DNA from: an uncultured Chloroflexia bacterium
GTDB taxonomy: Bacteria; Chloroflexota; Ktedonobacteria; Ktedonobacterales; JADMIN01
NCBI GenBank assembly: GCA_963718915.1
Contig: CAVRAI010000015.1
Span: 720,001 to 752,000, forward strand
DNA length: 32,000 bases
Reading direction: 5' to 3'
Shown here: positions 1 to 30,735 of the stretch, one piece after another
Numbering within the stretch: position 1 is the first letter of the stretch
Layout of the letters: every line of letters begins with the position of its first letter
Program-made: the position numbers and the translations under genes
The notes under the pieces: model-generated
Seen by the model: only the letters and a program-made list of their open reading frames with translations
Databases searched by the model: none
Told to the model about the DNA's origin: nothing

Positions 1-879
1 AGTCGGCGTCTCTCCGCTCCCGAAGTGGCGGCGCTGAGTGATGGGCCGTTGGTGAAGCTGCGACAAGACGGGCAGCAGGCGCTGGCGGAGGAGGTGCTCG
101 CGGGGTTGGATGCCTTGATTGGCGACTGTCTGGCATTCGCGCCCACGGCGCGCCCGACGGCGCAGCGGGTGCGGGAGCGGTTAGCGGCGCTGGCCGAGCA
201 GGCAGGCCTGGAGCCACTGACTATCCCGGTGTATCCACATACCGACGAGAGTAAGGCAATCTTCTGGGGCAACCTGGGCATCACCTATGGTGAGATGGGG
301 CAGCATGAGGAGCAGTTGCGCCTGCTGCGGAAGTCGATCACGCTCACGCCTGACAATCCCCAACGGCTTGAGACGCTGGGCAATGCTCTGGGCAAGGTGG
401 CTCAGGTCGAGCAGCACGCGGCAGAGGAGGCTGTTAAGCAAGGAGACCATGCCAGGGCGCAGGCGCTTGCTGCACAGGCACGCTCACGCCTGGAGGAGGC
501 GGTGGGCGTTTTCCAGGAGGCGGAGGCGCTGCTGACCCCGGAATGGCTGGCGCGCTACTCGCATCTCGCGAAGTCGATCCCATTCAATCTGGGCGCCGCG
601 CTCGGTGATCTGCAACGCTATGCCGAATCTTTGGATGCCACTCGACGCGGGCTGGAGGTCGATCTGACCGATGCCATGTCGTATCGCCAATTGGGAGTAC
701 TTTACTGGCGCTGGTCGCGCGTGGACGGAACTCCCGCTGCCACACAGGTTGAGCGGTTGGAACAGTCCGAGGCGCATATTCAGCAGGCGCTTGAGATTGC
801 CCCCCTCTACGGCGGTGGGCAAGAGTTACTCGCCTTCATCCAGCGTGAATTGGCCACAGCACGGCATAATCTCGAGTAA
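1..879 (+). CDS. 3' part of a larger gene: end of a Ser/Thr-kinase-like domain followed by TPR-like helical repeats (5' end lies outside the window)
   Basis: Frame 1 is open from base 1; the ORF track merely begins at an internal GTG at 25. The segment ...CLAFAPTARPTAQRVRERLAAL resembles the C-lobe end of Hanks-type kinases. Downstream segments such as GNLGITYGEMGQHEEQLRLLRKSITLTPDNPQ look TPR-like. Stop codon at 877-879. Confidence 0.5.
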   Translation, partial: SRRLSAPEVAALSDGPLVKLRQDGQQALAEEVLAGLDALIGDCLAFAPTARPTAQRVRERLAALAEQAGLEPLTIPVYPHTDESKAIFWGNLGITYGEMGQHEEQLRLLRKSITLTPDNPQRLETLGNALGKVAQVEQHAAEEAVKQGDHARAQALAAQARSRLEEAVGVFQEAEALLTPEWLARYSHLAKSIPFNLGAALGDLQRYAESLDATRRGLEVDLTDAMSYRQLGVLYWRWSRVDGTPAATQVERLEQSEAHIQQALEIAPLYGGGQELLAFIQRELATARHNLE

Positions 880-990
880 CGCCTGTTTTACACGCTTCTG
901 CATTCCTACCCGCGCCAAAGAAATAAGCAGCGGAGCTTTCGCAATTCATCTCTTGATGGCTGTGCTGTCCAGCTATGACGCGAGCGACCG

Positions 991-1019
991 ATGACGTCAG
1001 CGACCGGTCATGTTATACT
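991..1019 (+). promoter_or_regulatory. Candidate sigma-70-type promoter for the helicase-nuclease gene
   Basis: Extended -10 TGtTATACT at 1011-1019. Weak -35 ATGACG at 991-996 with a 17-bp spacer. Lies about 95 nt upstream of the GTG start at 1114, in a 234-bp intergenic gap. Confidence 0.3.
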
Positions 1020-1113
1020 GGGCGCTGCCTGGGAGAAGTATCCGATGCCAGAACCACCGGAGTGAGTTCCCAGCATCAGGAGGCGAGAACAAGCTGGGAA
1101 GGGATGCACTACT

Positions 1114-4100
1114 GTGCAGCATCTGACGATCCGCGTGGTCTGGCACGATAACAGGTGGAATGGACGGATTTGTAACGCGCCATCGCTCAATGGCTATTGT
1201 CTGGCGCAGGAGCGTATACGTAAGGATCGCGATGACGCGAAAGAGGATCGGCTGGCGGGGCGTTCATGGCGGAGCCTCAGGCGCGGCGAGTTGCCCCCAT
1301 GTGTAGCTGAATCCGGCGGCTTCATGAGCGACAACGAATGGGTACGCTCATTTGATCCACCGTTCCAGAACACCTTACCAGCAACCCATGGCGCTCTGCG
1401 CAAGACGACCATGCGCGTCGAGCCGTATACCGCGCTTGCCGTTCCCTTTCGCTGGATGCTACGCGAGCATCAGCGACGGATTGATGATAGGCTGCCAGAG
1501 CCACTCCCCGCCGACGAAACACCGCCACTCCACACGTCATGGGTGTTCAACCGCATCAGACAGGAAGCGATTGGCAGCCAGTTCTTCGGGCAACTCACAC
1601 CGGAGCAGTCACTGGTCTTCTTCTATTGCAAAGAGGGTCAACCCCTTGGCGACAGCATCTCGCGGCTGGTCGTCGGCGTTGGACGCATCCAGGCTATCGG
1701 GCTACAGAGCTACTATGATAGCGACGGTGAAGTGAGCTATCCAATCTGGGACCGCAAAATTCACCATACCATCCGGCCTGATGACGACGATGGGTTTCTG
1801 TTGCCCTATCACGACTACCTCACGCCTACTGGTGATCCCGACGAGGATCTGCGCCGCCGCAGCCTGCTGGAAACAATCGCCATCGCGGTTGACCCTGCGC
1901 ACATCCCGGCGTTCTCGTACTCGGCGGAACTGGCTTCATCCGATGTCGCCCTCGCGACGCTGATGCGCTGCCTGGATGCTGTTCGCCTTATTCGCATGCA
2001 CGGCATCGCAGACGGGACGTGGGATCAGCGCGAACAGTGGGTCAACGACCAGATCGCCGCCACATGGCGCGACCGTGGCGAATTTCCGGGCGTCGGATCC
2101 GCGCTGGAAGCGCTCGGCTTGCGTATCGGAACATCCCTGATGCTGGACCTGACGCGGCTCGGCATGATTCGCCCAGAGAGCAATCCCTGGCCTGTCGTGG
2201 ACGCCATTTTACGCGGGACGCAATCAGCGCCACTACCCTCGTATGAGCCGCACCTCGCCCCCGTACGTCTGGTCTGGGCAAATCTGCCCGACGAGCGCCG
2301 CAACCTACTCTATTTGCTTGCGCGATTTGACCTCTCACCCGAACAGGCGCGGCGCTGGTATGAGCCATCTGAGCGCGCAAAGATAACCCTCACCGCGTGT
2401 AGCGATGGCGATATCCTGGCGAATCCCTACCGTATCGCAGAAGCCGACCTGGGAGACGACACCTCACCCGCCATCACCATGGAAATTATCGACCGGGGTC
2501 TCTTCCCCGACGATGCCATCCGTGTGCATGACCCACCGCCTCTGTCAGCCGCCTTTGAAGATCACAACGACATCCGTCGAATCCGTGGCGCGTTGGTAAC
2601 TGTCCTGCGCGCGACGGCCAGGTCGGGCGACACACTGCTCAATGCAGTAGATGCCCTTGAGCGTCTGCGCAAGCTCCCAATCATCCCACCGCCAAGCAAT
2701 ATTGGCGTAGATTGGCTCACTGCCTACCGCGACCCGCTTGCAGACGCTGTCGCCGTCTATAACGTTGCATCTGGTGATAATGACAACGTCGAAATCAGCG
2801 TTGTTCAACTCACCGAGTTGCGCAAACGCGAAGACCTCGTGCGCAAAACGCTTCAGGGGAGAGCCGCCGCGCCGCTCGAATCGCTCCGGGTGGACTGGAA
2901 GTCGCTGCTTATCGAGGCTATTGGCGACGCCTACCAACCCCGGAACAAGCGCCATCACGACGCCCTGGACGAACAGGCGACGGCCCTCGAACGCATTACG
3001 TCCCGCAAGCTCTGCGCACTGACTGGACACGCGGGCACTGGCAAGACGTCGGTTATGGGCGCGCTCCTGCGCTGCCAGCGACTACGCGAGGAGGGCATCC
3101 TGTTGCTCGCGCCGACGGGCAAGGCACGGGTGCGGCTGGAGCAGACGGCAGGGAAAAATGCGGAAACACCACGTATTCGCGCCTTCACCATCGCCCAGTT
3201 CCTCTATGACCTTGGGCGGTACGACGGGGATCACCAGCGTGCGCTATTCACCGGAGACGCCACCTACAGGCACGCGCGAACCATCATCGTCGACGAAGCA
3301 TCCATGCTCACGCTGGATGACCTCGCTGCCTTACTTCTCGCCCTCGATCTCCTGCATGTGCAGCGGATCATTCTGGTCGGCGACCCAAATCAGTTGCCGC
3401 CCATTGGTGCAGGCCGCCCGTTCGCGGATCTGGTGTCATATCTCGATGCGCTAGCCACCGGCGATGGCGCTGCTGATACGGCGGATACCACAGCCGCTGG
3501 CGCGCTGGGCAAGCTCAGTATCGAGGTGCGCACACGGAGCGGAGACGCGCCCTCCGATGCGCTGCGACTCGCCTCCTGGTTCTCTCGTGGGCCACAACCC
3601 GTCGATGCCGACCGCGTACTGGATCAGGTCACTACGGGCGCGCAACTCAACGATCTGGATATCAGCTTCTGGCAAACGCCTGAAGATCTGCGTGCGCGCA
3701 TTCTGGAGAAATTCCAGACGTACCTGGGACTGGAGCATCGCAGCGACATCGCGGGCTTCGACCGCGCCCTTGGCATAGGAGAGGGTGGCCGGGTGCGCTT
3801 CGATGCGCCAGACGGCGTCGAACACTTCCAGATACTTTCGCCGACGCGCATGCGGCCACATGGCGTCTATGACCTGAATCGCTGGTTGCAGCGACGATTC
3901 CGCGCCGACGAGCTACGCAGAGCGCATTACAGCAACGGAAAGAGCCTCGGCCAGGAGGAGATTGTTCACAAGGACAAGGTTATCCAGGTTCGCAACGAAT
4001 GGCGCTGGATGTATGACCATCAGCGCCGCCTGAAGATGAGAGGCGCTCTTGCCAACGGTGAGATTGGCATAATCGCCAGAGGTCAGGGCGACTTCATGGA

Positions 4101-4821
4101 TGTAGCGTTCTCTGGCCACGCGCACCAGACCACTGGCTATATCGCGTCGCCGTATGTGGATCGTGAGTGCCCCCTGGAGCTCGCATATGCGCTGACGGTT
4201 CACAAGGCGCAGGGCAGCCAGTTTGATATTGTCTTCGTCATCATTCCTGAGCAGAGCGTGCGGCTCTCGCGCGAACTGCTCTACACGGCGCTCACCCGCT
4301 CGCGTGAACGTCTGGTGTTACTGGTGCAGGGGGATGACGCGAGCCGCCTCTATGCGTACAGCCTGCCCGGCGCGTCCGACACGACTCGCCGCAATACCAA
4401 TCTCTTTACCCCAGCGGTTCGCGACCCTGCCTCTGACTATCCAAACGCCAGATATCTCATTCACCGGACCCCCGGCGGTCAACTCGTGCGCAGTAAGTCG
4501 GAACTGGTCATCGCGAATATGCTCGAACACATGGATATCCCCTACAAATACGAGGAGCCGTTCTTTGGGGAGACCGAGCCGGGACGGCGCTTCCCAGACT
4601 TCACCTTCGCAACCGCCGCTGGCAGACGCATCATCTGGGAGCACCTCGGCATGCTCACGCTCCCCGACTATGCGCGCGGCTGGGAGGAGAAGCGTCTCTG
4701 GTACAAGAGAAACGGCTACCTTGAGGGAGCGCAATTGTTCACCACCCGTGACGACGAGCGAGGTGGGCTGGATTCACGCGACGTGCGGAAGGTCGCGGAG
4801 CGTATTCAGGCGCTCATCTGA
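1114..4821 (+). CDS. 1235-aa fusion: uncharacterised N-terminal region + SF1B RecD/TraA-like helicase + C-terminal PD-(D/E)xK-like nuclease domain
   Basis: Uninterrupted 3.7-kb ORF with GTG start and GGGAAGGGA upstream. Helicase motifs: Walker A GHAGTGKTS (nt 3025-3051), LLLAPTGKA, IIVDEASML, ILVGDPNQLPPIG, ALTVHKAQGSQFD, LLYTALTRSRERLVLL. An NPY segment (ILANPYRIAEADLG) resembles RecD2-type N-terminal regions. C-terminal aa 1112-1235: SKSELVIANMLE...RFPDFTF...IIWEHLGM, a restriction-endonuclease-like D...E pattern. The N-terminal MQHLTIRVVWHDNRWNGRICNAPSLNGYCL could not be assigned. Confidence 0.85.
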   Translation: MQHLTIRVVWHDNRWNGRICNAPSLNGYCLAQERIRKDRDDAKEDRLAGRSWRSLRRGELPPCVAESGGFMSDNEWVRSFDPPFQNTLPATHGALRKTTMRVEPYTALAVPFRWMLREHQRRIDDRLPEPLPADETPPLHTSWVFNRIRQEAIGSQFFGQLTPEQSLVFFYCKEGQPLGDSISRLVVGVGRIQAIGLQSYYDSDGEVSYPIWDRKIHHTIRPDDDDGFLLPYHDYLTPTGDPDEDLRRRSLLETIAIAVDPAHIPAFSYSAELASSDVALATLMRCLDAVRLIRMHGIADGTWDQREQWVNDQIAATWRDRGEFPGVGSALEALGLRIGTSLMLDLTRLGMIRPESNPWPVVDAILRGTQSAPLPSYEPHLAPVRLVWANLPDERRNLLYLLARFDLSPEQARRWYEPSERAKITLTACSDGDILANPYRIAEADLGDDTSPAITMEIIDRGLFPDDAIRVHDPPPLSAAFEDHNDIRRIRGALVTVLRATARSGDTLLNAVDALERLRKLPIIPPPSNIGVDWLTAYRDPLADAVAVYNVASGDNDNVEISVVQLTELRKREDLVRKTLQGRAAAPLESLRVDWKSLLIEAIGDAYQPRNKRHHDALDEQATALERITSRKLCALTGHAGTGKTSVMGALLRCQRLREEGILLLAPTGKARVRLEQTAGKNAETPRIRAFTIAQFLYDLGRYDGDHQRALFTGDATYRHARTIIVDEASMLTLDDLAALLLALDLLHVQRIILVGDPNQLPPIGAGRPFADLVSYLDALATGDGAADTADTTAAGALGKLSIEVRTRSGDAPSDALRLASWFSRGPQPVDADRVLDQVTTGAQLNDLDISFWQTPEDLRARILEKFQTYLGLEHRSDIAGFDRALGIGEGGRVRFDAPDGVEHFQILSPTRMRPHGVYDLNRWLQRRFRADELRRAHYSNGKSLGQEEIVHKDKVIQVRNEWRWMYDHQRRLKMRGALANGEIGIIARGQGDFMDVAFSGHAHQTTGYIASPYVDRECPLELAYALTVHKAQGSQFDIVFVIIPEQSVRLSRELLYTALTRSRERLVLLVQGDDASRLYAYSLPGASDTTRRNTNLFTPAVRDPASDYPNARYLIHRTPGGQLVRSKSELVIANMLEHMDIPYKYEEPFFGETEPGRRFPDFTFATAAGRRIIWEHLGMLTLPDYARGWEEKRLWYKRNGYLEGAQLFTTRDDERGGLDSRDVRKVAERIQALI

Positions 4822-4828
4822 CAATTTG

Positions 4829-4853
4829 GTTGTACTCGACGACAACACTTTTT
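4829..4853 (+). terminator. Weak candidate intrinsic terminator after the helicase-nuclease gene
   Basis: GTTGT (4829-4833) / ACAAC (4842-4846) forms a 5-bp stem with an 8-nt loop, followed by ACTTTTT. The stem is short, so support is marginal. Confidence 0.25.
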
Positions 4854-4952
4854 CGCCACGACGAGTCTCACTAGCATAAGCCATCGCAATGACGGCTATC
4901 TCCGGTACAAGCATGGCGTCCGCATCCGCATGACTTCTCAACGTCGCAATGT

Positions 4953-5522
4953 ATGCGCCAGAAGCGAAAGGACTACCGTGGCATGGATTATGAGCGATTC
5001 GCCCCGCTCGTCACGCCTCACACCACAACGATGACACGCATGGCGGCAGCCCTTGTAGGCATTTCCGACGCCGAAGACGCCGCACAGGAAGCGCTCATGC
5101 GCGCGTGGCGTGCGTGGCCTGGGCTGCGAGAGGCCGACTCTACACGCGCATGGCTCATACAGATCACGGTGAACATCTGTCGCACCTGGCGCGCGCGCAG
5201 CCAGAGCCACGACGACATCGATCATCTCGATACCATGATTCCTATAGAGGGCGCCCCATCCGTCATGCTGGGCGCGAACGACCACATCAACGCCCTTGAC
5301 ATGAGGCAGGCGCTGTTGACATTGAGCGCTGACCTGCGCCAGATAGTCGTGTTGCGGTTCTATATCGGCATGGATTCAACGGAGATCGGCGAGCTGCTGA
5401 GTGAACCCCCAGCGACGATTCGCGGTCGGCTGCGACGAGCGCTCATACAGCTTCGGCGCGCGCTCGATGACGGGCGTCAGACGATACCAGCCCATGATAC
5501 GCACGCCAGAAAGGACGCCTAA
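4953..5522 (+). CDS. ECF-type RNA polymerase sigma-70 family factor
   Basis: Region 2-like AEDAAQEALMRAWRAWPGL...WLIQITVNICRTWRA and region 4 HTH LRQIVVLRFYIGMDSTEIGELLSEPPATIRGRLRRALIQLRRAL. The start may instead be ATG 4983, which has AAAGGA upstream. Confidence 0.85.
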   Translation: MRQKRKDYRGMDYERFAPLVTPHTTTMTRMAAALVGISDAEDAAQEALMRAWRAWPGLREADSTRAWLIQITVNICRTWRARSQSHDDIDHLDTMIPIEGAPSVMLGANDHINALDMRQALLTLSADLRQIVVLRFYIGMDSTEIGELLSEPPATIRGRLRRALIQLRRALDDGRQTIPAHDTHARKDA

Positions 5523-6431
5523 ATGCCCACTCAGTTTGAGCTGGATAACGCGCGCGATGACGATATCAGCAATCTGCCAGCGGATGCGCAAGAGGTGTAT
5601 CACTGGCTAACGCAGGAAGGAGCCGTTTCGCGGGACAGTGTCGCACGAATCAACCAGCGGCTTCAGAAGCGTATCACCCAGTTCAGCGCCACCCAGATCG
5701 CCGCCAACATCGCAGCCAACCAGGAGCCTGAGCCATTCGCCACGATCAACGCGCCGACTCCTGCTCCCCATGCGATAGAGATCACCCATCGAGCGTCCCG
5801 CTATACGAGTATGCGCCGCTGGGTGGCAGTGCTGGCGACCGTGGCCGTCGTCATTGCCTTTGTCGCAGCCCTCTCCGTGAACGCGAGACTACGATCCGGA
5901 GATCCATCGTCGCACCAGACACCGCCAGTTATTGATCTGAGCGGCGTGCCACTGACGCCGGTCGCGACCCCTGGACTAGCCTCCAGGACGCTCGCCCAGG
6001 TAGTTACCGCGCTCCATCGCCAGGGCAATTGTAATCCAGTTGACCCGTCGTCGTACTTCCATGTTGGCGATGCGGTGTGGGTCTTCGTCATTCTCAAGCA
6101 ACCGGCGCAGGGACACACGATAAGCGTCCGCTGGTTCGCGAACGAGACCGATGTCAGCCCGCCTTCAGCCGATAAAACAACGCTGACCTTGGGAGATAAC
6201 ACCGCTGACGCATGCTTCTCGCTCCAGTATCCCACGCCGGGCAAAGGCTCGGTGAAAGTCTATTGGGATCGCCCGGCGAACGACGATGGCAATAATCCCA
6301 CCGATCCGGCGCTGATGGCAACCATCAATTTCGCGGTTCTACCCGTTGGATACGGCGCCCCGACTCCCGGGCCGGCCGGAACGTCCGCGCTACCGGCGCA
6401 AAACTCCTCGTCATGGTTGCGCCAGTCATGA
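5523..6431 (+). CDS. Single-pass membrane protein translationally coupled to the ECF sigma factor; putative anti-sigma factor
   Basis: ATG directly abuts the sigma stop codon (TAAATG). One transmembrane helix (WVAVLATVAVVIAFVAALSV) separates an acidic N-terminal cytoplasmic segment from an extracytoplasmic domain of about 180 aa. No HxxxCxxC zinc motif is present. Function is inferred from position only. Confidence 0.5.
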   Translation: MPTQFELDNARDDDISNLPADAQEVYHWLTQEGAVSRDSVARINQRLQKRITQFSATQIAANIAANQEPEPFATINAPTPAPHAIEITHRASRYTSMRRWVAVLATVAVVIAFVAALSVNARLRSGDPSSHQTPPVIDLSGVPLTPVATPGLASRTLAQVVTALHRQGNCNPVDPSSYFHVGDAVWVFVILKQPAQGHTISVRWFANETDVSPPSADKTTLTLGDNTADACFSLQYPTPGKGSVKVYWDRPANDDGNNPTDPALMATINFAVLPVGYGAPTPGPAGTSALPAQNSSSWLRQS

Positions 6432-12635: not shown

Positions 12636-15586
12636 ATGAGCCAGACGACTATGACTCCGGCGACCGACTCGCCAGCACCGAAACCACCACCGCCGCAATC
12701 GCCGGGTTTCTGGCGTTCGCTGGCGCGTGGCTTTCTTGGACTATGGTGGGTCTTTGTCGTCGCGCTGGCCGCTGGCGTCGCGTCGTATCTTGGCAACCAT
12801 GCCGGGCCGCTGGTCTTGCCGATCATCCCGCAGGTCGTCGCCTGGGCGCGCGCGCTGACGCTTCCCGCGCAGGTTGGGCTGGCGATCCTGATTCTGGCAT
12901 TGCTTGCGCTGATGGGCTGGCTGACGTACCTTGCCTGGCAGCATCGCCAGCGGCAGGCGGCGGAGGAGGTGGAGGCGAACGTTGCCCAGCAGGCAGCGGC
13001 CTTCACCCAGACGATGGAACATGACGTCAATCCGCGACTCGACAACATCGGGGCCACGGTGGACGAGACCAGCCGTGATGTGAAGACGCTGATTCAAGAA
13101 GGGCAGAGCGCGCCGCTGCCGCTCGTCCGCGATCTCGACCGCGTCAGCTTCAGGATGGGCGACCGCGCCGCCGCCAATTTCAGATATGTCTATGGGCCGG
13201 TGCGCGCTATCTTCGACCAGGCAACGGCTACACTGCATGACGCCGCTCAGTATATCGGGGCGAAGCAGGGCATTCTGGTGACGGGCGCGGCCAACGCGGG
13301 CAAGACCCGCCTGGGACTCGAAGCGCTCATCGCGGCGCTGCCCGACTGGGATACACTCGTCTGGAATGTTGGCGATGGCGAGAGCAGGATACCATCGGCG
13401 AAACAACTGGAAGGGCGCAGCGTCGCCGTCTTCCTCGACGACATCCAGAACTACGCCGCTGGTGGCGACATCGCGAGTGGTTCGGATGGGCGATCAGCTC
13501 AATCGTCGGTCGCTGGCCCAGGGGCGACCTTGCGGACACTCTATCAGCGCGTCTGCCAGGACTCCGCTCATGTCGTCATCGTCGCCACTTGTCGCCATGA
13601 GGACCAGAAAGCCGCCGAGGGTAGCCTGGGCTGGTTTTTCGAGAAGCTCGACGAAGTAGCGATCCCCACGTTCAACCGTGATGAAGGGTCATTGGAGGCG
13701 CGGGAAATCATCGCCGAGTTCGCGGAGCAAGGCGCGATTCGCGACGAGTGGAACGGCACGCTCGGCTCGCTGGTGCTCGGCCTGGGCCGCAAACGCCAGC
13801 AATATAGAGACCTGGTGCTTCAGCATAATCCCGATAATCCTGCCGTCCCCGTGCTGCGCGCGATGAAGCTGCTGACCATTGGTGGCGTCCTCGATCTGAC
13901 GGGAAGCCGCGTGCGCGCCGTCTGCGACCAGATGCTGCACAGGTCATCGCTGGCAGTGTTGGGCGAAGCATGGGATGACGCGCTTGAGGAGTTGAAACGC
14001 CTGGAGTTCGTCGCGATTACCCCGACCGATGATGGCGACGTGCGGGTGGCGATTCTCAAGGATGATTACTTCAAATATGTCGTGGACGACTATCCGGAGG
14101 ACTACCAGCTTCAGCAACACCGCGCTGGCCTATTGAATGTGCTGGTATCGCTCAAAGACGACGATGCCCTGTTCGATCTGGGTAATGGATTCTACTTTGA
14201 CGATCTATTTACCTCGGCCCTCGCCGCCTACGAGCAGGCGATCCGCCTCAACCCGACAATGCCACCGCCTATAACAACATGGGCACGACCCTCGGCAAGC
14301 TCGAACGCTACGCCGAGGCCCTCGCCGCCTACGAGCAGGCGATCCGCCTCAACCCGACCGATGCCACCGCCTATTACAACATGGGCACGACCCTCGGCAA
14401 GCTCGAACGCTACGCCGAGGCCCTCGCCGCCTACGAGCAGCGATCCGCCTCAACCCGACCGATGCCACCGCCTATAACAACATGGGCAATACCCTCGATA
14501 CGCTCGAACGCTACGCCGAGGCCCTCGCCGCCTACGAGCAGGCGATCCGCCTCAACCCGACCGATGCACCGCCTATAACAACATGGGCACGACCCTCGGC
14601 AAGCTCGAACGCTACGCCGAGGCCCTCGCCGCCTACGAGCAGGCGATCCGCCTCAACCCGACCGATGCCACCGCCTATAACAACATGGGCACGACCCTCG
14701 GCAAGCTCGAACGCTACGCCGAGGCCCTCGCCGCCTACGAGCAGGCGATCCGCCTCAACCCGACATATGCCACCGCCTATAACAACATGGGCACGACCCT
14801 CGATACGCTCGAACGCTACGCCGAGGCCCTCGCCGCCTACGAGCAGGCGATCCGCCTCAACCCGACCGATGCCACCGCCTATAACAACATGGGCAATACC
14901 CTCGGCAAGCTCGAACGCTACGCCGAGGCCCTCGCCGCCTACGAGCAGGCGATCCGCCTCAACCCGACCGATGCCACCGCCTATAACAACATGGGCACGA
15001 CCCTCGATACGCTCGAACGCTACGCCGAGGCCCTCGCCGCCTACGAGCAGGCGATCCGCCTCAACCCGACATATGCCACCGCCTATAACAACATGGGCAA
15101 TACCCTCGATACGCTCGAACGCTACGCCGAGGCCCTCGCCGCCTACGAGCAGGCGATCCGCCTCAACCCGACATATGCCACCGCCTATAACAACATGGGC
15201 AATACCCTCGGCAAGCTCGAACGCTACGCCGAGGCCCTCGCCGCCTACGAGCAGGCGATCCGCCTCAACCCGACCTATGCCACCGCCTATAACAACATGG
15301 GCACGACCCTCGATACGCTCGAACGCTACGCCGAGGCCCTCCAAGCATTCGAGGAAGCCATCAAACTCGATCCCAACAGTGCAGGCGCCTGGCGTAACAA
15401 GAGTGTTACGCTGGCTCTACAGGAACAGTTCGATGAGGCGCTTATCGCCTGTGACAAAGCGATTGAATTGGCCCACAAGACGCCAATGGCTGGAAGTTAA
15501 AAGCCGCGATCCTCGATGAGCTTGGGCGTGAGGATGAGGCGCGCGCCGCCGAGGAACGGGCGAAACAACTGGAAGAGCTATATTAG
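12636..15586 (+). pseudogene. Membrane-anchored P-loop NTPase fused to a TPR array of about 14 repeats (STAND/NLR-like); reading frame interrupted by four 1-nt deletions
   Basis: ATG 12636 with GGAGG 8 nt upstream. TM helices at aa ~33-52 and ~80-100. Walker A GAANAGKT (13284-13307) and Walker B VAVFLDD (13422-13442). The TPR reading continues across four ORF-track fragments (12636.., 14279.., 14482.., 14583..) and a fifth frame that encodes PQDANGWKLKAAILDELGREDEARAAEERAKQLEELY and ends at TAG 15584-15586. Frame shifts 0>2>1>0>2 occur at about 14259, 14441, 14568 and 15472. Confidence 0.75.
14216..15341 (+). repeat. Tandem array of 11 near-identical 102-bp units, each encoding one 34-aa TPR
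   Basis: Units begin at 14261, 14363, 14464, 14566, 14667, 14769, 14871, 14973, 15075, 15177 and 15279. The spacing is 102 bp except where a base is missing. Consensus: ATAYNNMG[T/N]TL[GK/DT]LERYAEALAAYEQAIRLNPT[D/Y]. Confidence 0.95.
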
Positions 15587-15640
15587 CACACCTTAATACA
15601 GCGACACACCGCCTTCATCCTCTTTTTGTGAAATAGTCCA

Positions 15641-15669
15641 TTGTCGCCCTTCCATCGCCGTGGTATAAT
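15641..15669 (+). promoter_or_regulatory. Promoter of the nadBCA operon
   Basis: TTGTCG (15641-15646), a 17-bp spacer, then TATAAT (15664-15669), in an AT-richer gap about 130 nt upstream of the nadB ATG. Confidence 0.6.
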
Positions 15670-15682
15670 TCCCAACATGAGT

Positions 15683-15701
15683 TAGTGTATCACGTACACT
15701 A
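15683..15701. promoter_or_regulatory. Inverted-repeat operator candidate just downstream of the nad promoter -10 box
   Basis: TAGTGTA-N5-TACACTA has perfect 7-bp arms and starts 14 bp after the -10 hexamer, so it overlaps the expected transcription start region. Confidence 0.5.
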
Positions 15702-15797
15702 AACACTAACAGATGTTTAACGGTGACGGATGGCACGCTGTTGGCGCCGTCCGTGAGGGCAGTGAAGACCGTTCATTGCCTGAATGAGGAGTCATAG

Positions 15798-17450
15798 ATG
15801 ACCGCGCCAACGGAGAAAGATATTCCTGTAGTGTGTGATGTCGCCATCATCGGCGGCGGCATCGCCGGATTGACTGTCGCACTGAATATGCCTGAGAGCT
15901 TGCGCGTCGTCCTGATGACCAAGGCGGCGCTCGGCGAGAGCAATACCCGCTACGCGCAAGGTGGACTCGCCGCTGCCGTTGGCCCCGACGACGATCCTGA
16001 GTTGCACCTGCACGACACGCTGGCGGCAGGCGCGGGGCTGGTAGACGAGACGGCAACCGGGGTGCTGGTGCGCGAGGCGCGCGACGCCGTCGCCTGGCTG
16101 ATCGCGGAGGGCGCGCGCTTCGACGAGCAGGCGAACGCCACAGAGACAGTGCGGGACGACCTGGCCCACCGCTACGATCTGGCCCGCGAGGCCGCGCACA
16201 GCCGCCGCCGGGTGCTGCATGCACGCGACGCTACTGGCGCCGAGATCGAGCGGGCGCTGGTCGCCGCGATTCGTGCCCGGCCCGGCGCGCTGGTTCTCGA
16301 AGATACGCAGGCGCTCGATCTGGCCTTGGGCGATGGCGCGTGCGTTGGCGTGGACGTGTTCCATGGCGGCGAGACCCGGCGCATTCTGGCGCGGGGCGGC
16401 GTTGTGCTGGCGAATGGCGGCGCGGGCCAGCTCTGGCTGCGCACGTCGAATCCAACGGGGGCGACGGCCGACGGCCTGGCGCTGGCGTGGCGCGCGGGCG
16501 CGGTGGTCAGCGATGTCGAGTTTGTACAGTTCCATCCCACCACGCTCGTCTCGCCGTCGGGTGAGACGTTCCTCATCTCCGAGGCGGTGCGCGGTGAGGG
16601 CGCCTGGCTGCGTAACGCGGCGGGCGAGCGCTTCATGACGCGCTACTCGTCGGACGCTGAATTGGCCCCGCGCGATGTCGTCGCCCGCGCCATCCTCAGC
16701 GAGATGCTGGCCGAGAACGCGCCATCGGCTTTCCTCGATCTGCGCCATCTGCCCGAACACGAGGTCTACGAGCGCTTCCCGACGATTGCCGCCGCCTGCC
16801 GCAGAGACGGCCTCGATCTTGCCCACGATCTGATTCCCGTCGCACCTGCCGCGCACTACTTCATGGGCGGAGTGACGGTGGACACCTGGGGGCGGACGAC
16901 CGTTCCCGGCCTCTTCGCGGTCGGCGAGGTATCGTGTACCGGCGTGCATGGCGCGAATCGGCTTGCCAGCAATTCGCTGTTGGAGGGGCTGGTCTTTGGC
17001 CGCAGGGTCGCATCGGTGCTGGCGGGCGTGGCGAATCCGGGCGACTGGCCGACGACCTCACCGCTGCCCGGCGTCCAGCGTGACACTGCCGCTATAGTGC
17101 TGCCCGAACGCTCGCTGACCGCGCATGTCGCCGAGGCGATACGCCAGCAGTTGCGTGCGACGATGTGGCGCGATGTCTCGCTGCGCCGCGACGCGCAGGG
17201 GCTGACTGAGGCGGGTGAGACGCTGCGCAGACTGTCGGCGTCCGGCCCGGTGGACCCAGAGACGGCGAATATGCTGCTGGCGGCGCAACTGATTGCGACG
17301 GCGGCGCTGGCACGCGAGGAGAGCCGCGGCGGCCACTTCCGCGAGGACTTCCCCAACCGTGATACGGCACTCGACGGCGTCCATTCGCTGCTGCATGCCG
17401 CGACGGTCGTTGCCCCGTGGGAAGAGCAAGAGGCGGCGGCCCATGCCTGA
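15798..17450 (+). CDS. nadB: L-aspartate oxidase
   Basis: FAD-binding DVAIIGGGIAGL; then YAQGG, RDATGAEI, HPT, and RLASNSLLEGLVFG...EESRGGHFRED, typical of the NadB/succinate-dehydrogenase flavoprotein family. GAGGAG RBS upstream. Confidence 0.95.
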   Translation: MTAPTEKDIPVVCDVAIIGGGIAGLTVALNMPESLRVVLMTKAALGESNTRYAQGGLAAAVGPDDDPELHLHDTLAAGAGLVDETATGVLVREARDAVAWLIAEGARFDEQANATETVRDDLAHRYDLAREAAHSRRRVLHARDATGAEIERALVAAIRARPGALVLEDTQALDLALGDGACVGVDVFHGGETRRILARGGVVLANGGAGQLWLRTSNPTGATADGLALAWRAGAVVSDVEFVQFHPTTLVSPSGETFLISEAVRGEGAWLRNAAGERFMTRYSSDAELAPRDVVARAILSEMLAENAPSAFLDLRHLPEHEVYERFPTIAAACRRDGLDLAHDLIPVAPAAHYFMGGVTVDTWGRTTVPGLFAVGEVSCTGVHGANRLASNSLLEGLVFGRRVASVLAGVANPGDWPTTSPLPGVQRDTAAIVLPERSLTAHVAEAIRQQLRATMWRDVSLRRDAQGLTEAGETLRRLSASGPVDPETANMLLAAQLIATAALAREESRGGHFREDFPNRDTALDGVHSLLHAATVVAPWEEQEAAAHA

Positions 17451-18366
17451 TAACACATCCAATCCATTCCTACAGCCCCCTCTCCCCGTGGGGGAGGGGT
17501 CAGGGGAGGGGGCCGCCTTCGATCCCATCTTCGATACCGACCTGGTTCGGCGCGCGCTGGCTGAGGATGTTGGTCGGGGCGACGTGACCACCCAGGCGAC
17601 GATTGCGCCGGGAACGCGGAGCAGCGCCCGTATCGTCGCGCGCCAGGCGGGCGTTGTCGCTGGGCTGCCCATCGCCGCGCTGACCTTCGCCCAGCTCGAT
17701 CCCGGCGTCCAGTTCGAGACACTCACACCCGACGGCACATCTGTGGAGGCGGGGACAACGCTGGCGCGCGTCTCGGGTGACGCGGCGGCGCTGCTGACAG
17801 CCGAGCGGACGGCGCTCAACTTCCTGGGTCGCCTCTCCGGCATCGCCACGCTGGCGGCGCGTTGTGTCGCGGCGGTAGCGGGCACGCGCGCGCGTATCGT
17901 GGATACGCGCAAGACGACGCCGGGCCTGCGTCTGCTGGAGAAGTACGCGGTGCGCATGGGTGGCGCGCGCAATCACCGTGCGGGGCTGGATGACGGCATT
18001 CTCATCAAAGACAACCATATCGCCGCTGCGGGCAGCCTGACGCTGGCGGTCGAGCGGGCGCGCGCCCATGCCTCGCACCTCCTGAAAATCGAAGTCGAGT
18101 GCGAGAGCGAATCCCAGGTGCGCGAGGCGATCACCGCCGAAGCCGACTCGATTCTGCTGGACAACATGACGCCCGACCAGCTGCGTAGCGCCGTCGCGCT
18201 GATTCGCGAGCAGGCGCCAAATATCACCATCGAGGCGTCCGGCAATATCGGAACCGATCCGCGTAAGCTGGCGGCGGTGGCGGCGACCGGCGTTGACCTG
18301 ATCTCGCTTGGCGCGCTGACCCATTCCGCACCCAACTTCGACGTTGCACTGGACTTCGAGAGCTAG
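17443..18366 (+). CDS. nadC: Nicotinate-nucleotide (quinolinate) pyrophosphorylase
   Basis: ATG 17443 overlaps the nadB stop codon (ATGCCTGA). Contains LAEDVGRGDVTT, ERTALNFLGRLSGIAT, DTRKTTPGLR, KYAVRMGGARNHR and LLDNM. GTG 17488 is an alternative start. The longer ORF-track start at 17293 lies inside nadB. Confidence 0.92.
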   Translation: MPDNTSNPFLQPPLPVGEGSGEGAAFDPIFDTDLVRRALAEDVGRGDVTTQATIAPGTRSSARIVARQAGVVAGLPIAALTFAQLDPGVQFETLTPDGTSVEAGTTLARVSGDAAALLTAERTALNFLGRLSGIATLAARCVAAVAGTRARIVDTRKTTPGLRLLEKYAVRMGGARNHRAGLDDGILIKDNHIAAAGSLTLAVERARAHASHLLKIEVECESESQVREAITAEADSILLDNMTPDQLRSAVALIREQAPNITIEASGNIGTDPRKLAAVAATGVDLISLGALTHSAPNFDVALDFES

Positions 18367-18413
18367 CCCATATTCTTCGCACGGCAATGGCGCCGGATAG
18401 GAGCAACCTACAT

Positions 18414-19676
18414 ATGGCTATCAAGTTGGAGACATTTCCGCAGGGCGAAATCTGCGTCGAGAGCCGTGACGCGCGCATCCTGCCCTCGCTGGACGAGTGG
18501 CGCGAGCGCGAGTCGGGCAACCTGGCGCAACACAAGCCGCGCCACTCCGGATCGGAACGCGCCGACGCCATCCCCCGCGAGTACGCGCTGATGGACGCCG
18601 ACGAGCTTGACCGGCGGATTATGGCGGCGCGGGCAAAGCTGGGGACGCGGCTGGTGATTCTCGGCCACCACTATCAGCGCGACGAGGTCATCAAGTACGC
18701 CGACGCGCGCGGCGACTCATTCAAGCTGGCGCAGTTCGCGGCGGCGCGCCCAGAGGCCGACTACATCCTCTTCTGCGGCGTCCATTTTATGGCCGAGAGC
18801 GCCGATATTCTCAGCGGGCCGCACCAGACAGTGATTCTGCCGAACCCGGCGGCAGGCTGCTCGATGGCCGATATGGCGAACATCGCCGAGGTGGAGGAGT
18901 GCTGGGAGGCGCTGGACGCGCTCTACGGCGACGAGACGACGGGCGAAGAGGGCGAGTCACAATCGGTCATCCCCGTCACGTATATGAATTCCGCCGCCAA
19001 CCTGAAGGCATTCTGCGGGCGCAACGGCGGCATCGTCTGCACCAGCTCCAACGCGGCGCAAGTGATGGCGTGGGCGTTCGCGCGTGGGCGGCGTGTGCTC
19101 TTCTTCCCTGATGAGCACCTGGGCCGCAATACGGCGCTGAAGATGGGCATCCCTGAGGAGCGGATCGCCGTCTGGAACCAGCGGCTGGACTTCGGCGGCA
19201 TCGAGGACGATGAGAAGCTGATGCAGGCGAAGGTGATCCTGTGGAAGGGCTGGTGCTCGACGCATGCGCGCTTCACCGCCGCGCAGATCGAGCAGGCGCG
19301 CAGGGACTATCCCGGCGTGCGCGTGCTGGTGCATCCGGAGTGCCGCCACGAGGTGGTGGCCGCCGCCGACCTCAACGGCTCGACCGAGTATATTGTCAAG
19401 GCGGTGGCGGAAGCGCCAGCGGGGACAATCTGGGCCATCGGCACGGAAATCAACCTGGTGAAACGGCTAGCGAAAGAGCATACCGACCAGACGATCTTCT
19501 GTCTCGACCCTGTCGTCTGCCCCTGCTCGACGATGTACCGTATCCATCCCGCCTATATCGCCTGGGTGCTGGAGGAGCTGGTGGAAGGGCGCGTGGTGAA
19601 CCAGGTGCGCGTGGACGACGAGACGGCGAAGTGGGCCAAGGTGGCGCTGGAGCGTATGCTGGCAAACAGGGGGTAG
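18414..19676 (+). CDS. nadA: Quinolinate synthase (long-N-terminus type)
   Basis: ILGHHYQRDEV, FCGVHFMAES, CSMAD, YMNSAA, VHPEC and PCSTMYRI include the three Cys-containing Fe-S cluster segments. Start chosen at ATG 18414, which has AGGAG 10 nt upstream. ATG 18387 is also possible. Confidence 0.92.
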   Translation: MAIKLETFPQGEICVESRDARILPSLDEWRERESGNLAQHKPRHSGSERADAIPREYALMDADELDRRIMAARAKLGTRLVILGHHYQRDEVIKYADARGDSFKLAQFAAARPEADYILFCGVHFMAESADILSGPHQTVILPNPAAGCSMADMANIAEVEECWEALDALYGDETTGEEGESQSVIPVTYMNSAANLKAFCGRNGGIVCTSSNAAQVMAWAFARGRRVLFFPDEHLGRNTALKMGIPEERIAVWNQRLDFGGIEDDEKLMQAKVILWKGWCSTHARFTAAQIEQARRDYPGVRVLVHPECRHEVVAAADLNGSTEYIVKAVAEAPAGTIWAIGTEINLVKRLAKEHTDQTIFCLDPVVCPCSTMYRIHPAYIAWVLEELVEGRVVNQVRVDDETAKWAKVALERMLANRG

Positions 19677-19715
19677 CGAGCCATTTAGCCGTACTAGGGC
19701 CGCAGGCGACCGAGA

Positions 19716-19856
19716 GCGGGCGGTTGAAACCGCGCCTCAACGGCCTACGGCCACAAAACCCGCCTGCGCGGGTTTCAAAGCGCTGACCTGCCGAAGCTGT
19801 GCCATTGCAAGAATCCTCAGATCGCGGGATTAGCCGCAGGGCTTCAGCCTGCGGCC
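19716..19856 (+). repeat. Composite REP-like intergenic element, copy A (module 1 at 19716-19783, module 2 at 19827-19856)
   Basis: Module 1: GGCGGTTGAAACCGCGCC..GGCCTACGGCC..AAACCCGCctgcGCGGGTTT, three short hairpins. Module 2: GGATTAGCCGCAGGgcttcagCCTGCGGCC. About 85% identical to 31114-31248 in the same order and orientation. Confidence 0.8.
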
Positions 19857-19909
19857 TGTGCGCCTCACCAGCAGTGCCGCCGTCTGCCATTCATCTCAGC
19901 CATGTGCTC

Positions 19910-20761
19910 CTACTCCGCGCTCCACCGCAGGCTACCATCATCGGCGTGGGTGACGCGACCAAAGTTGGCGATATGGGCGGCGGTCAGCAGCGCGTGTTCG
20001 GCCAGCGCGTCCTGGAGCAGCCACTTCCGCGTCGCCAGCATCACCTCGGCGTCGGCCCAGCCCACCATCCAGTCGGGATGCACCACCTCGATGGCATGGT
20101 GGAACGCATCGCCGACAATGTAGAGCGTCTCGCCCGCCGACTGGACGCGCACGATCTGATGTCCCGGTGTCTCCCCCGGCGCTGGCAGGATGTCTATTCC
20201 CTCCGCGATCTGCTCTGGCCCCTCGACCAGATGCAGCATGTTTCGTTCGTGAAGCACGCCCAGCGTTCGCGCCTCCAGCGATGTCGCATCCTGTAACGCG
20301 GTCTGCATCTCGGCATTCGTCCAATCGCCTGCGCCCAGGTAGTATCGCGCCTGCGGGTAAGTGGGCGCGTAGCCGCCGTCAGCGGGCGAGGTGGCGCCCG
20401 CGAAGTGATCCCAGTGGGCGTGGGTGATGACCATATGGGTGATGTCGTCCGGCTGGACACCGAGGCTGGCAAGCTGGTCAGGAATCGCGGGAGGCGGCGT
20501 ATAGTCGGGCAGCGCGTACTCCGAATCAGGCGTCATCGTCGCCCGATAATCGTTGGCGTCCACCAGGATGCGGGCGTCGTGATGCTCGATGTAGACGCTC
20601 AGACTCGGAGACACGTCTGGCCGCTCGAAGATGTCGGCATACTGGGGACGCCAGAGCGCCTCAGGTACGTCCAGTTCCCGCGAGAGTATCAGGCGCATAT
20701 CGCCCGCGTTGATGAGGGTCACGCGCGCGTCGCCCACGCGCACCGTCGTCATTTCCGGCAT
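19910..20761 (-). CDS. MBL-fold metallo-hydrolase
   Basis: Start refined to ATG 20761 (MPEMTTVRVGD...), with GGAGG 6 nt upstream. Metal-binding motif ITHMVITHAHWDHFAG, later PGETPGH and DAFHH. Confidence 0.85.
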   Translation of the reverse strand: MPEMTTVRVGDARVTLINAGDMRLILSRELDVPEALWRPQYADIFERPDVSPSLSVYIEHHDARILVDANDYRATMTPDSEYALPDYTPPPAIPDQLASLGVQPDDITHMVITHAHWDHFAGATSPADGGYAPTYPQARYYLGAGDWTNAEMQTALQDATSLEARTLGVLHERNMLHLVEGPEQIAEGIDILPAPGETPGHQIVRVQSAGETLYIVGDAFHHAIEVVHPDWMVGWADAEVMLATRKWLLQDALAEHALLTAAHIANFGRVTHADDGSLRWSAE

Positions 20762-29086: not shown

Positions 29087-29134
29087 GACAGGGCAGCCAG
29101 ACATAGTATGTCGCGTAGCGGAGAGGCAGTGGCC

Positions 29135-30450: not shown

Positions 30451-30735
30451 TTCTCTGGTTCTGATTTCTGAATTGCATTTACAATAGAATAACACTGACA
30501 GCAGAAATGGAATGGCGGGGTGTGTTTCTGGCCGCGCGTAGCGCGGAAAATTGGGGGAAATCTAACGTCTCGCCACCAAAAGCCGCTCGTCACCTGTATG
30601 ATCGCTGATGGCCGTTGCCTACCGCAAAGTCCTGCCCTTGAGCCTGCGGAACGATCCGCCTCGTCGTAGCAAGCGTGGGAAGCATGCGGGAGGTCGCTCC
30701 TCGTTGCGTGCGCTCCATGGGGCAGACCGAACCCA

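Follow-up and report, generated by a model that had tools for sequence, protein, structure and literature searches.

A RecD-type helicase with a predicted C-terminal nuclease module, from an uncultured Ktedonobacterales-like bacterium, belongs to the candidate defence family PDC-S68

The 1235-residue protein studied here is an ordinary member of PDC-S68, a catalogued candidate defence family. Its gene lies in the window, by which we mean the whole stretch of 32,000 nucleotides that was analysed. The PADLOC profile HMM PDLC05065 matches the protein from end to end (E 0, 1326.8 bits; residues 1-1231 against positions 5-1218 of 1221), and the other two models of the family match it as well (PDLC05066 at 608.9 bits, PDLC05064 at 524.4 bits). 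The preliminary description of this DNA had held that the combination of domains matches none known, a claim that this high-scoring PADLOC match overturns. PDC-S68 is one of 145 bioinformatically predicted single- or multi-gene phage defence candidates (Payne et al., bioRxiv 10.1101/2024.01.29.577857), a set drawn from genes that lie inside BREX, DISARM or type I RM loci (same source). We found no experimental test of PDC-S68, and a full-text search of the literature did not return the name "PDC-S68". We think it probable, with some reserve, that the gene product is an autonomous, ATP-driven helicase-nuclease made of a single polypeptide, most likely one restricting invading phage or plasmid DNA.

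The family is large and patchily distributed. More than 1100 homologues match the protein in length, and relatives occur in at least 517 of 185,579 GTDB species genomes, with all major bacterial phyla represented and with 53-56% identity between the Chloroflexota and Proteobacteria sequences. The three-part architecture of N-terminus, helicase and predicted nuclease persists in homologues of 80% to about 35% identity, and all 55 full-length representatives examined carry the C-terminal domain.

The open reading frame (Table 1) was confirmed from the sequence, and its GTG start is supported by the homologues, which in alignment open with the same MxHLTxRV. The gene had been credited with a promoter-like sequence of its own; a site is indeed present about 95 nt 5' of the start codon, with a TG preceding the -10 element, but such matches barely exceed chance, as the 800-5100 region holds three sigma-70-like sites against 1.4 expected from shuffles. 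We found no terminator-like site between the stop codon and the ECF sigma gene that follows on the same strand 131 bp downstream, and thus the earlier statement that the gene has no operon partners is not established.

Table 1. Features of the PDC-S68 gene and of the DNA just upstream, in window coordinates
Feature	Coordinates	Strand	Basis or remark
Sigma-70-like promoter match	991..1019	+	ATGACG, 17-nt spacer, TATACT; consensus match only
Shine-Dalgarno-like purine-rich GGGAAGGGA	1096..1104	+	9 nt 5' of GTG; read directly
CDS, 1235 aa + stop, GTG start	1114..4821	+	PDC-S68 (PADLOC candidate family) member
Orphan N-terminal alpha/beta domain, aa 1-275	1114..1938	+	AF2 model; conservation
Helical DNA-binding arm (predicted), aa 276-615	1939..2958	+	Resembles RecD2 N-terminal accessory region; weak evidence
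SF1B RecD-type helicase core, aa 616-1075	2959..4338	+	Pfam, NCBIfam, motifs
Restriction-endonuclease-like domain (putatively PD-(D/E)xK superfamily, Vsr/EDxHD-like), aa 1112-1235	4447..4818	+	AF2, Foldseek, conservation

Judged by its motifs, the protein is an SF1B helicase of the RecD/Pif1/Dda class. Pfam places AAA_30 at residues 619-775 and UvrD_C_2 at 1023-1070; Walker A (GHAGTGKT, 638-645, with K644) and Walker B (DEASM, 727-731, with D727 and E728) are present, as are motifs III, V and VI in RecD-like form (GDPNQ at 756, TVHKAQG at 1028 and YTALTR at 1057), so the first reading of a RecD-like core with all motifs intact holds. An SH3-like 2B insert is weakly matched at residues 921-989. 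Among proteins of solved structure, E. coli RecD (E 8.5e-25) and D. radiodurans RecD2 (E 2.6e-23) come nearest. Assignment to either of these proteins was considered and rejected: the RecD2 equivalog TIGR01448 gives a partial match (residues 484-775) of 194.4 bits against a cut-off of 500, and TIGR01447, for RecD, the exonuclease V alpha subunit, gives 159.8 bits against a cut-off of 310.

The N-terminus had been described as an unassignable region of about 430 residues. An orphan part is real and covers residues 1-275, but by Pfam the unmatched region extends to about residue 615, and its second half, from about residue 276, is weakly RecD2-like. Pfam has no match in the N-terminus of the window protein or of any of 40 diverse homologues, and no PDB relative of it was found by sequence profile. 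AF2 models residues 1-620 with a pLDDT of 89.6 and a pTM of 0.86; when the N-terminal model was compared with the PDB by Foldseek, as had been proposed, no match was better than E 0.3 and none fell in residues 1-275. Conservation within these 275 residues is pronounced, with R7, W10, H11, W15, C20, P23, N26, C29, P61, C63, H92, W114, W143, Q150, Y171, K173, R184, W212 and H218 all invariant, three cysteines and three histidines among them. A phmmer search with the N-terminal domain alone returned 1081 representatives of clusters formed at 50% identity, and the full-length ones all share the architecture of the window protein. We infer that residues 1-275 form a candidate metal site and a sensor or regulatory module.

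Residues 276-615 weakly resemble a RecD2-type arm of helix-hairpin-helix and winged-helix elements. Within them an HhH-like FPGVG motif (residue 324) is followed by helical repeats and by a winged-helix-like unit at about residues 487-566; the TIGR01448 alignment starts inside this arm, at residue 484. The only Foldseek PDB matches of the 1-620 model are winged-helix proteins, and the best BFVD match is a Megavirus protein annotated as a "RecD2-like helix-hairpin-helix domain" protein (E 0.027, probability 0.93, 426 columns).

The C-terminal 125 or so residues model as a restriction-endonuclease-like fold, in agreement with the compact module first proposed from the sequence. The AF2 model has a pLDDT above 90 in its ordered core, roughly residues 1119-1235, and across 35 sequences, down to 37% identity, S1127, K1128, E1130, P1161, D1162, F1163, E1176 and H1177 do not vary; the residues suggested earlier as mutation targets, K644, D1162 and E1176, are all at invariant positions. 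Strand 3 lacks the canonical (D/E)xK lysine and has E-H-L instead, and K1193 is nearly invariant. The Foldseek comparison that had been proposed for this module returned mostly PD-(D/E)xK nucleases as its top matches, weak ones (E 0.05-1, TM 0.3-0.58) that include I-Bth0305I, the R2 RLE domain, DrdV, Exo5, Cas4 and TnsA. Statistically this support for the nuclease fold is slight, the best E being 0.05, a point that counts, like the missing lysine, against the defence reading that we favour. Pfam gives weak TPD and DUF1122 matches. One of the better likenesses is to the EDxHD/Vsr-like catalytic domain of I-Bth0305I (PDB 3R3P; Foldseek probability 0.84-0.85, target-normalised TM 0.58), which shares a compact alpha-beta-beta-beta-alpha core where helix 1 has an acidic residue, strand 2 has PD and strand 3 has E-H, although with an E of 0.15, 19% identity and no DUF559 or Vsr match in Pfam, membership of that group is not established.

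These parts suggest how such a protein could work. The arm (from about residue 276) and the SF1B motor would engage DNA at a free 5' single-stranded tail, at an end or at a fork, and the motor would then translocate 5' to 3', if polarity and substrate are as in the RecD/RecD2 family. The tethered PD-(D/E)xK-type nuclease, with E1130, D1162, E1176 and H1177, would cut the threaded DNA, as its modelled fold and invariant residues imply. More speculatively, residues 1-275, perhaps by way of a Zn or Fe-S site, might serve as a sensor or licensing module that limits activity to foreign DNA or infection-specific structures.

To see what company the homologues keep, as the preliminary description had advised, we considered an independent sample of 78 loci from many phyla, fetched by homology from GTDB species genomes. 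The association on which PDC-S68 had been predicted was reproduced in it. A DrmD/BrxH-like SNF2 helicase lies within about four genes of the homologue, mostly on the same strand, in 21 of the 78, and a type I HsdM gene is found in eight, five of which have HsdS too; DISARM-like, BREX or RM-I contexts make up 37% of the sample. Large DrmMI-like or type IIG-like methyltransferases are often directly upstream. The same loci also carry Septu PtuA, DRT1a, HEC-07, TmtA-like, SMODS with S_4TM (CBASS-like) and WYL regulator genes, BREX PglX, PglZ and BrxA were found in one locus (L003), and BrxL, PglZ, MADS genes and other PDCs were also seen in the remaining loci. The neighbours are not conserved from locus to locus (738 neighbour proteins form 640 clusters), and in 14 of 53 cases a same-strand upstream gene ends 30 bp or less from the start. 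The window protein itself has no Drm-profile match (DrmA, B, C, D, E or MI) among its PADLOC hits, and the Drm-like genes are neighbours of the homologues, not relatives of the protein. The anti-phage or anti-plasmid reading offered at the outset therefore fits the company of the homologues, while the window copy sits in a housekeeping region.

Closely packed gene arrays raise the question of whether the protein is autonomous at all. It might instead supply the nuclease activity, or a back-up for it, in methylation-based systems such as type I or type ISP RM or those with a DISARM-like or BREX-related SNF2 helicase and a large N6-adenine methyltransferase; the partner's methylation would then set self against non-self, and the window copy would be an orphan that lost its partners. 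Co-directional arrays running from SNF2 helicase to large methyltransferase to PDC-S68, with gaps of 5-25 bp, recur in six loci (L016, L024, L027, L038, L075 and L079), and in L027 unrelated metabolic genes (peptidase S9, tannase) stand on either side, which makes the triad look self-contained. On the 23.9-kb Paracoccus plasmid p7, 19 bp separate the PDC-S68 gene from a type ISP RM gene directly upstream, and a 2026 survey of BREX-related systems located auxiliary or back-up nucleases in such loci (PMC12839542). The partners, however, are of many kinds (DISARM-like, BREX, type I, type ISP), and the same inter-gene positions are filled by Septu, DRT1, CBASS-like and HEC-07 genes, which are clearly autonomous, a placement that corresponds to the "embedded independent system" pattern (bioRxiv 10.1101/2024.01.29.577857). 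At least half of the 78 loci, and the window, are without such a partner within about six genes, and motor, DNA-binding arm and putative sensor domain are all built into the protein itself. We regard dependence on such partners as unlikely, though worth keeping in mind.

A bolder proposal, to which we would give little credence at present, joins the two arrangements. Residues 1-275 could be an undescribed metal-centre fold, built on the three invariant cysteines and three invariant histidines, that senses the state of the DNA (methylation status, ends or infection-specific structures) and licenses the motor-nuclease. Equally tentative is the suggestion that the triads are a new three-gene RM-like system, in which PDC-S68 would be the missing restriction effector beside the SNF2 helicase and the N6-methyltransferase, with solo copies acting alone.

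The window copy is solo and lies outside defence islands and mobile elements: no defence, RM or mobile-element neighbours were found within the window, and the flanks of the gene encode TPR, ECF sigma and anti-sigma, peptidase S9, Rho, NadB, NadA and MutL proteins. The gene upstream (ORF 25-879) had been called a kinase-TPR gene; the TPR repeats are there, but a kinase domain is not visible within the window. Two close relatives (L083 and L086) have the gene at the same site, a syntenic housekeeping region with F420H2-reductase-like, peptidase S9, DUF5666, pentapeptide, Rho and NadB genes as shared neighbours. Syntenic orthologues, which the preliminary description would have counted against a defence role, were thus found, in this narrow lineage only, and the solo window copy has probably been inherited vertically within a narrow Ktedonobacterales-like lineage. 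Another pair of relatives (L087 and L088) shares a second housekeeping site, GrpE-DnaJ-POR. Housekeeping sites in related genomes would also fit cellular DNA maintenance.

Such sites, together with a GC content like that of the surroundings and a MutL gene about 20 kb away, are what might be expected of a vertically inherited housekeeping gene for a repair or recombination helicase-nuclease with Dna2- or AddAB-like end or flap processing. We find this improbable: the family occurs in well under 1% of species among the matches listed and is scattered over all phyla at 50-56% identity, its scores fall far below the NCBIfam cut-offs for RecD2 and RecD, and over a third of the sampled loci are in the defence contexts described above, with some copies on plasmids. 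Between syntenic relatives the PDC-S68 protein is 74-76% identical, compared with 93-99% for Rho and 84-91% for peptidase S9, and one close relative (71% identity) adjoins SNF2 and DEAD helicases and bpMoxR/VMAP conflict genes. Least probable of all, and very doubtful in our opinion, is service to a mobile element (plasmid or island maintenance, or competition between elements) in place of host defence: 24 plasmid records have a homologue (by MOB-suite 22 non-mobilizable and two mobilizable, with small ones of 23-24 kb among them), on B. cereus megaplasmids an integrase is just upstream of the gene, which directly precedes drmA-DUF1998, and two unannotated gut "Bacteriophage sp." contigs hold relatives, yet most copies are chromosomal, the window copy is without mobile-element hallmarks, and plasmid copies again adjoin RM or DISARM genes.

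PDC-S68 is widespread across phyla and plasmids, yet it is a database label only, and a fifth of the protein is without a domain assignment. If it does restrict phages or plasmids, it would be a new single-gene RecD-type helicase-nuclease immunity system, and what the orphan domain senses might explain the nesting of such genes in DISARM, BREX and RM loci. For annotation, "PDC-S68-family candidate defence helicase-nuclease" is to be preferred to "AAA family ATPase" or "RecD-like helicase".

Among known systems, MtsD of MANTIS (Gao_RL) and DruE of Druantia III resemble the favoured reading as motor-driven nuclease defence effectors, although neither has a sequence relationship to the window protein and both need partner proteins; MtsD, in which SF2-like ATPase domains are combined with a PLD nuclease, takes effect after a methyltransferase module, and DruE is a helicase of the YprA family. 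Nhi, Hna and Hhe likewise place a superfamily-1 or -2 helicase and a nuclease on one polypeptide in defence contexts. Nhi and Hhe are Upf1-like SF1 proteins and Hna is an SF2 protein, and their domain order and helicase family differ from those of PDC-S68. The Nhi model matches the P-loop region only (residues 625-760, E 0.0013, 15.5 bits), the 23 PADLOC families listed at E <= 1 include no Hhe model, and Pfam finds no DUF4011, DUF559 or DUF3320 in the protein, in keeping with the earlier remark that it differs from these types. Dna2, AddB and Exo5 combine an SF1B motor, or a motor partner, with a PD-(D/E)xK nuclease and process DNA ends or flaps, but their nucleases are N-terminal to the motor and surrounded by a four-Cys Fe-S cluster, whereas the predicted PDC-S68 nuclease is C-terminal and Cys-free. 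A Dna2/AddB/Cas4-type Fe-S nuclease was rejected on the same grounds, residues 1100-1235 containing no cysteine and the three invariant cysteines lying in the unrelated N-terminal domain. RecD2 (D. radiodurans, PDB 3E1S and 3GP8) and RecD of RecBCD (PDB 1W36 chain D) share the SF1B motor with all motifs, the SH3-like 2B insert and a RecD2-like HhH accessory region before domain 1A; the PDC-S68 protein, neither a RecBCD subunit nor a core gene product, adds the 275-residue orphan domain and the fused, predicted C-terminal nuclease. With PDC-S68 as catalogued (models PDLC05064-05066) there is no structural difference, each being a single gene, and the distinction is one of place: homologues are embedded in or adjoin DISARM-like, BREX and type I RM loci, while the window copy stands alone in a housekeeping region.

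The window gene adds a new member to a family already catalogued by PADLOC. In a PADLOC-DB scan the PDC-S68 model PDLC05065 matched the protein over its full length (1326.8 bits, aa 1-1231 against profile positions 5-1218 of 1221), and two sister PDC-S68 models scored 609 and 524 bits. The main novelty claim of the preliminary description, that this architecture matches nothing known, therefore falls. The PDC ("phage defence candidate") set comprises 145 single- and multi-gene candidates, derived from genes that lie inside BREX, DISARM and type I RM loci; their own authors explicitly term them untested (bioRxiv 10.1101/2024.01.29.577857). A full-text literature search for "PDC-S68" found no paper naming the family, the name is absent from one part of the supplementary tables of the PDC paper, and a survey of B. 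cereus defence does not name it.

The sequence itself had been described correctly. Homologues from many phyla share the opening MxHLTxRVxWHD, which makes the start call sound, and a purine-rich GGGAAGGGA can be read directly from the sequence 9 nt 5' of the start. A Pfam scan placed two domains in the protein, with none in aa 1-600 or aa 1100-1235, and all of the helicase motifs listed in the table are intact, giving an intact RecD-type SF1B motor. Among solved structures, E. coli RecD (E 8.5e-25) and D. radiodurans RecD2 (E 2.6e-23) come nearest, and they match in the motor region only. Neither equivalog assignment holds, as the NCBIfam scores are 160 for RecD (cut-off 310) and 194 for RecD2 (cut-off 500). 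The Nhi model in PADLOC-DB matches the P-loop only (15.5 bits), the match to type IV-D CRISPR RecD is limited to the helicase core, and the PADLOC families listed at E <= 1 include no Hhe or Drm model.

Coordinates of the features discussed (aa, residues of the protein named; other positions in nucleotides)
Feature	Location	Detail
Helicase-nuclease ORF	window 1114-4821 (+)	GTG start, 1235 codons
Promoter-like site	window 991-1019	
HhH-like motif	aa 324	FPGVG
AAA_30	aa 619-775	Pfam
Walker A	aa 638-645	GHAGTGKT, includes K644
Walker B	aa 727-731	DEASM
Motif III	aa 756	GDPNQ
UvrD_C_2	aa 1023-1070	Pfam
Motif V	aa 1028	TVHKAQG
Motif VI	aa 1057	YTALTR
ECF sigma/anti-sigma-like pair	window 4953-6431	directly downstream of gene
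Orthologous ECF sigma pair	L083 7486-9705	directly upstream of gene
613-aa ORF, then 345-aa TPR ORF	window 12636-15519 (+)	between Rho and NadB
TIR_2/FGE-sulfatase-like ORF	window 29108-30487 (+)	459 aa
Three-gene set	L027 3443-13717	
Defence island	L040 5062-16856	Verrucomicrobiia MAG
Giant downstream genes	L060, L063, L065, L068 ~13650-20600	2305-2310 aa, same strand
Schlafen AlbA_2	P0174 (1406 aa), aa 1255-1390	C-terminal to PD-(D/E)xK-like domain

The C-terminal nuclease-like domain is conserved. In 35 sequences with identities as low as 37%, S1127, K1128, E1130, P1161, D1162, F1163, E1176 and H1177 are invariant and K1193 is nearly so. The AF2 model is confident (pLDDT >90 in the core), with an alpha-beta-beta-beta-alpha-beta layout, and its Foldseek matches are mostly PD-(D/E)xK nucleases (the I-Bth0305I catalytic domain, the R2 retrotransposon endonuclease, DrdV, Exo5, Cas4-like ACE1, TnsA and VRR-NUC). 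The model, these matches and the invariant residues fit the restriction-endonuclease-like module proposed earlier, but the matches are statistically weak (E 0.05-1). Pfam found nothing above threshold in 35 C-termini, with TPD and DUF1122 below it, and the C-terminal profile had only spurious matches among PDB sequences. On the predicted structure, the domain is probably a divergent restriction-endonuclease-like nuclease of Vsr/EDxHD flavour, having E...PD...EH in place of the motif of classical (D/E)xK nucleases.

The N-terminal region had been described as matching no domain family, and this stands in part. The AF2 model of aa 1-620, which spans several domains, is confident (pLDDT 89.6, pTM 0.86), yet Foldseek against the PDB gave no E better than 0.3, a Pfam scan of 40 N-termini gave nothing above threshold, and a profile of the first 480 aa retrieved only spurious matches from PDB sequences; between them, this profile and the C-terminal one picked up NifE and the complex I subunit NB2M. 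This leaves the 275-aa N-terminal domain unassigned. Residues ~276-615, however, weakly resemble RecD2: the PDB matches are winged-helix regulators of ~100 aa, in agreement with the helix/strand pattern at aa ~487-566; the best match among viral models is a Megavirus "RecD2-like helix-hairpin-helix domain" protein (E 0.027, probability 0.93, 426 columns); the alignment to the RecD2 model TIGR01448 begins already at aa 484; and there is an HhH-like motif. From these weak matches, the segment is best read as a putative RecD2-type DNA-binding arm.

The family is large and uniform. A search of 5.8 billion proteins returned more than 1100 relatives, the best 120 of which are nearly all 1222-1246 aa long with 53-80% identity; the sources named among those listed are Ktedonobacterales (closest), Archangium, Sorangium, Pseudomonas fluorescens, Rhizobium, Accumulibacter and Nitrospira. 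Scanning one genome per GTDB species gave at least 517 relatives, the listed matches coming from Chloroflexota, Pseudomonadota, Myxococcota, Acidobacteriota, Actinomycetota, Bacteroidota, Planctomycetota, Verrucomicrobiota and Bacillota. The homologues in 78 loci fetched from these genomes align end to end at 35-54% identity (1215-1305 aa), except for a few frameshifted copies. With the N-terminal 275 aa as query we obtained 1081 cluster representatives, of which 548 have E <= 1e-10, and the best 150 are all of the same architecture or fragments of it. The nuclease domain is present in all 55 full-length proteins among these 150, so the three modules form an obligate unit. Four of the 150 have an extra C-terminal tail, which in one (P0174) is Schlafen AlbA_2 and in P0214, P0260 and P0266 is an unassigned stretch of 260-290 aa. 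In a phage collection, relatives of the N-terminal region (29-33% identity) occur on MT837260.1 and MT839248.1, short unannotated human-gut "Bacteriophage sp." contigs of 7.3 and 4.4 kb, which may be misclassified bacterial fragments or genuinely phage-borne copies.

The preliminary description had suggested an anti-phage or anti-plasmid role, to be judged by whether homologues lie in defence islands, and many of those sampled do have defence genes beside them. After ORF calling in the 78 loci, we clustered the proteins encoded up to six genes away on either side. These 738 neighbour proteins formed 640 clusters; synteny is therefore not general, and the recurrent clusters are defence genes: a DrmD/BrxH-like SNF2 helicase in 21 loci, mostly on the same strand, type I HsdM in eight and HsdS in five, large DrmMI-like or type IIG-like methyltransferases in at least 12, and, in four Bacteroidota loci, a 2305-aa TmtA/MkoA-like giant directly downstream. 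Individual loci carry BREX PglX-BrxH-PglZ-BrxA (L003), Septu PtuA (L022), DRT1a (L075), HEC-07 (L037) or a WYL regulator (L043), and among the immediate neighbours in the 39 loci without recurrent ones are BrxL, PglZ, MADS genes, TmtA and other PDCs. In 14 of 53 cases, the upstream gene on the same strand stops 30 bp or less from the homologue's start. The family also occurs on 24 plasmids, including a 23.9-kb Paracoccus plasmid on which the homologue comes 19 bp after a type ISP RM gene and B. cereus megaplasmids on which it precedes drmA-DUF1998-helicase. The association with defence loci is strong and, since the loci were sampled by homology alone, independently reproduces the one behind the PDC label. 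We consider an autonomous defence helicase-nuclease the probable reading, by a modest measure. A partner-dependent effector in methylation-based systems would suit the methyltransferase neighbours; the window copy stands alone, and we regard this alternative as unlikely.

Some arrangements recur more closely. In L027, as also in L024, L038 and L043, the PDC-S68 homologue is co-directional with the genes for a DrmD-like SNF2 helicase and a large type IIG/DrmMI-like methyltransferase, the gaps being 5-25 bp; in L027 the three are flanked by peptidase and tannase genes, without DrmA/B/C. This triad could be a distinct three-gene RM-like system. The four Bacteroidota giants start ~10 bp past the stop of the homologue, and the two genes may form a conserved module. 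L040 is a dense nested defence island, with a CBASS-like pair (SMODS nucleotidyltransferase and S_4TM effector) between a type I HsdR and the homologue, and a DrmD-like helicase after the homologue.

The window itself is housekeeping DNA, with genes for TPR, ECF sigma and anti-sigma, peptidase S9-like, DUF5666, pentapeptide-repeat, Rho, NadB, NadA and MutL proteins. The upstream "kinase-TPR" ORF has, within the window, TPR repeats only; the proposed promoter-like site exists, but its consensus match is weak; and the lack of operon partners could not be upheld, as the 131 bp down to the ECF sigma gene on the same strand contain no terminator-like site. Two close relatives, L083 and L086, have the gene at the same site, where the flanking genes are far more conserved (Rho 93% and 98.6%, peptidase S9 84% and 91% identity to the window copies) than the PDC-S68 gene (74% and 76%). 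Thus the gene in this lineage is a vertically inherited, faster-evolving solo copy. Synteny of orthologues, which had been named as part of what would count against a defence role, holds within this narrow lineage but not across the 78 loci. Two further relatives (60% identity) both have the gene at another housekeeping site, GrpE-DnaJ-POR, and a 71%-identity relative adjoins SNF2 and DEAD helicases and bpMoxR/VMAP conflict genes. The solo copy keeps a cellular repair role alive, although the housekeeping evidence from one lineage does not outweigh that from the family as a whole, and we think such a role quite improbable.

Other features of the window deserve mention. The ECF sigma pair (sigma 81% identical) adjoins the gene downstream in the window but upstream in L083, and is not at that position in L086, which suggests that the DNA around the gene has been rearranged locally. 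The 613-aa ORF has no Pfam match, and tblastn with it and the 345-aa ORF found no match in the otherwise syntenic L083 and L086; the two look like a lineage-specific insertion. Among the housekeeping genes, the 459-aa ORF joins an N-terminal TIR_2 (E 1.4e-17) to an FGE-sulfatase-like domain (E 1.3e-18), an architecture typical of conflict or immunity proteins.

A mobile-element function, for all the plasmid-borne copies, seems to us very improbable. As an autonomous defence enzyme, the protein would, by analogy with RecD and RecD2, load on 5' tails, ends or forks and translocate 5'->3', the tethered nuclease cutting the tracked DNA; the orphan N-domain might, speculatively, be a sensor or licensing module, possibly metal-dependent. 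Other helicase-nucleases were rejected as identities for the protein: MANTIS MtsD carries SF2-like ATPase domains and a PLD nuclease, Druantia DruE needs partners and has no sequence relationship to the window protein, and the BREX-related helicase-REase is of Swi2/Snf2 type. A translocating motor with a tethered nuclease would resemble other motor-nuclease defences.
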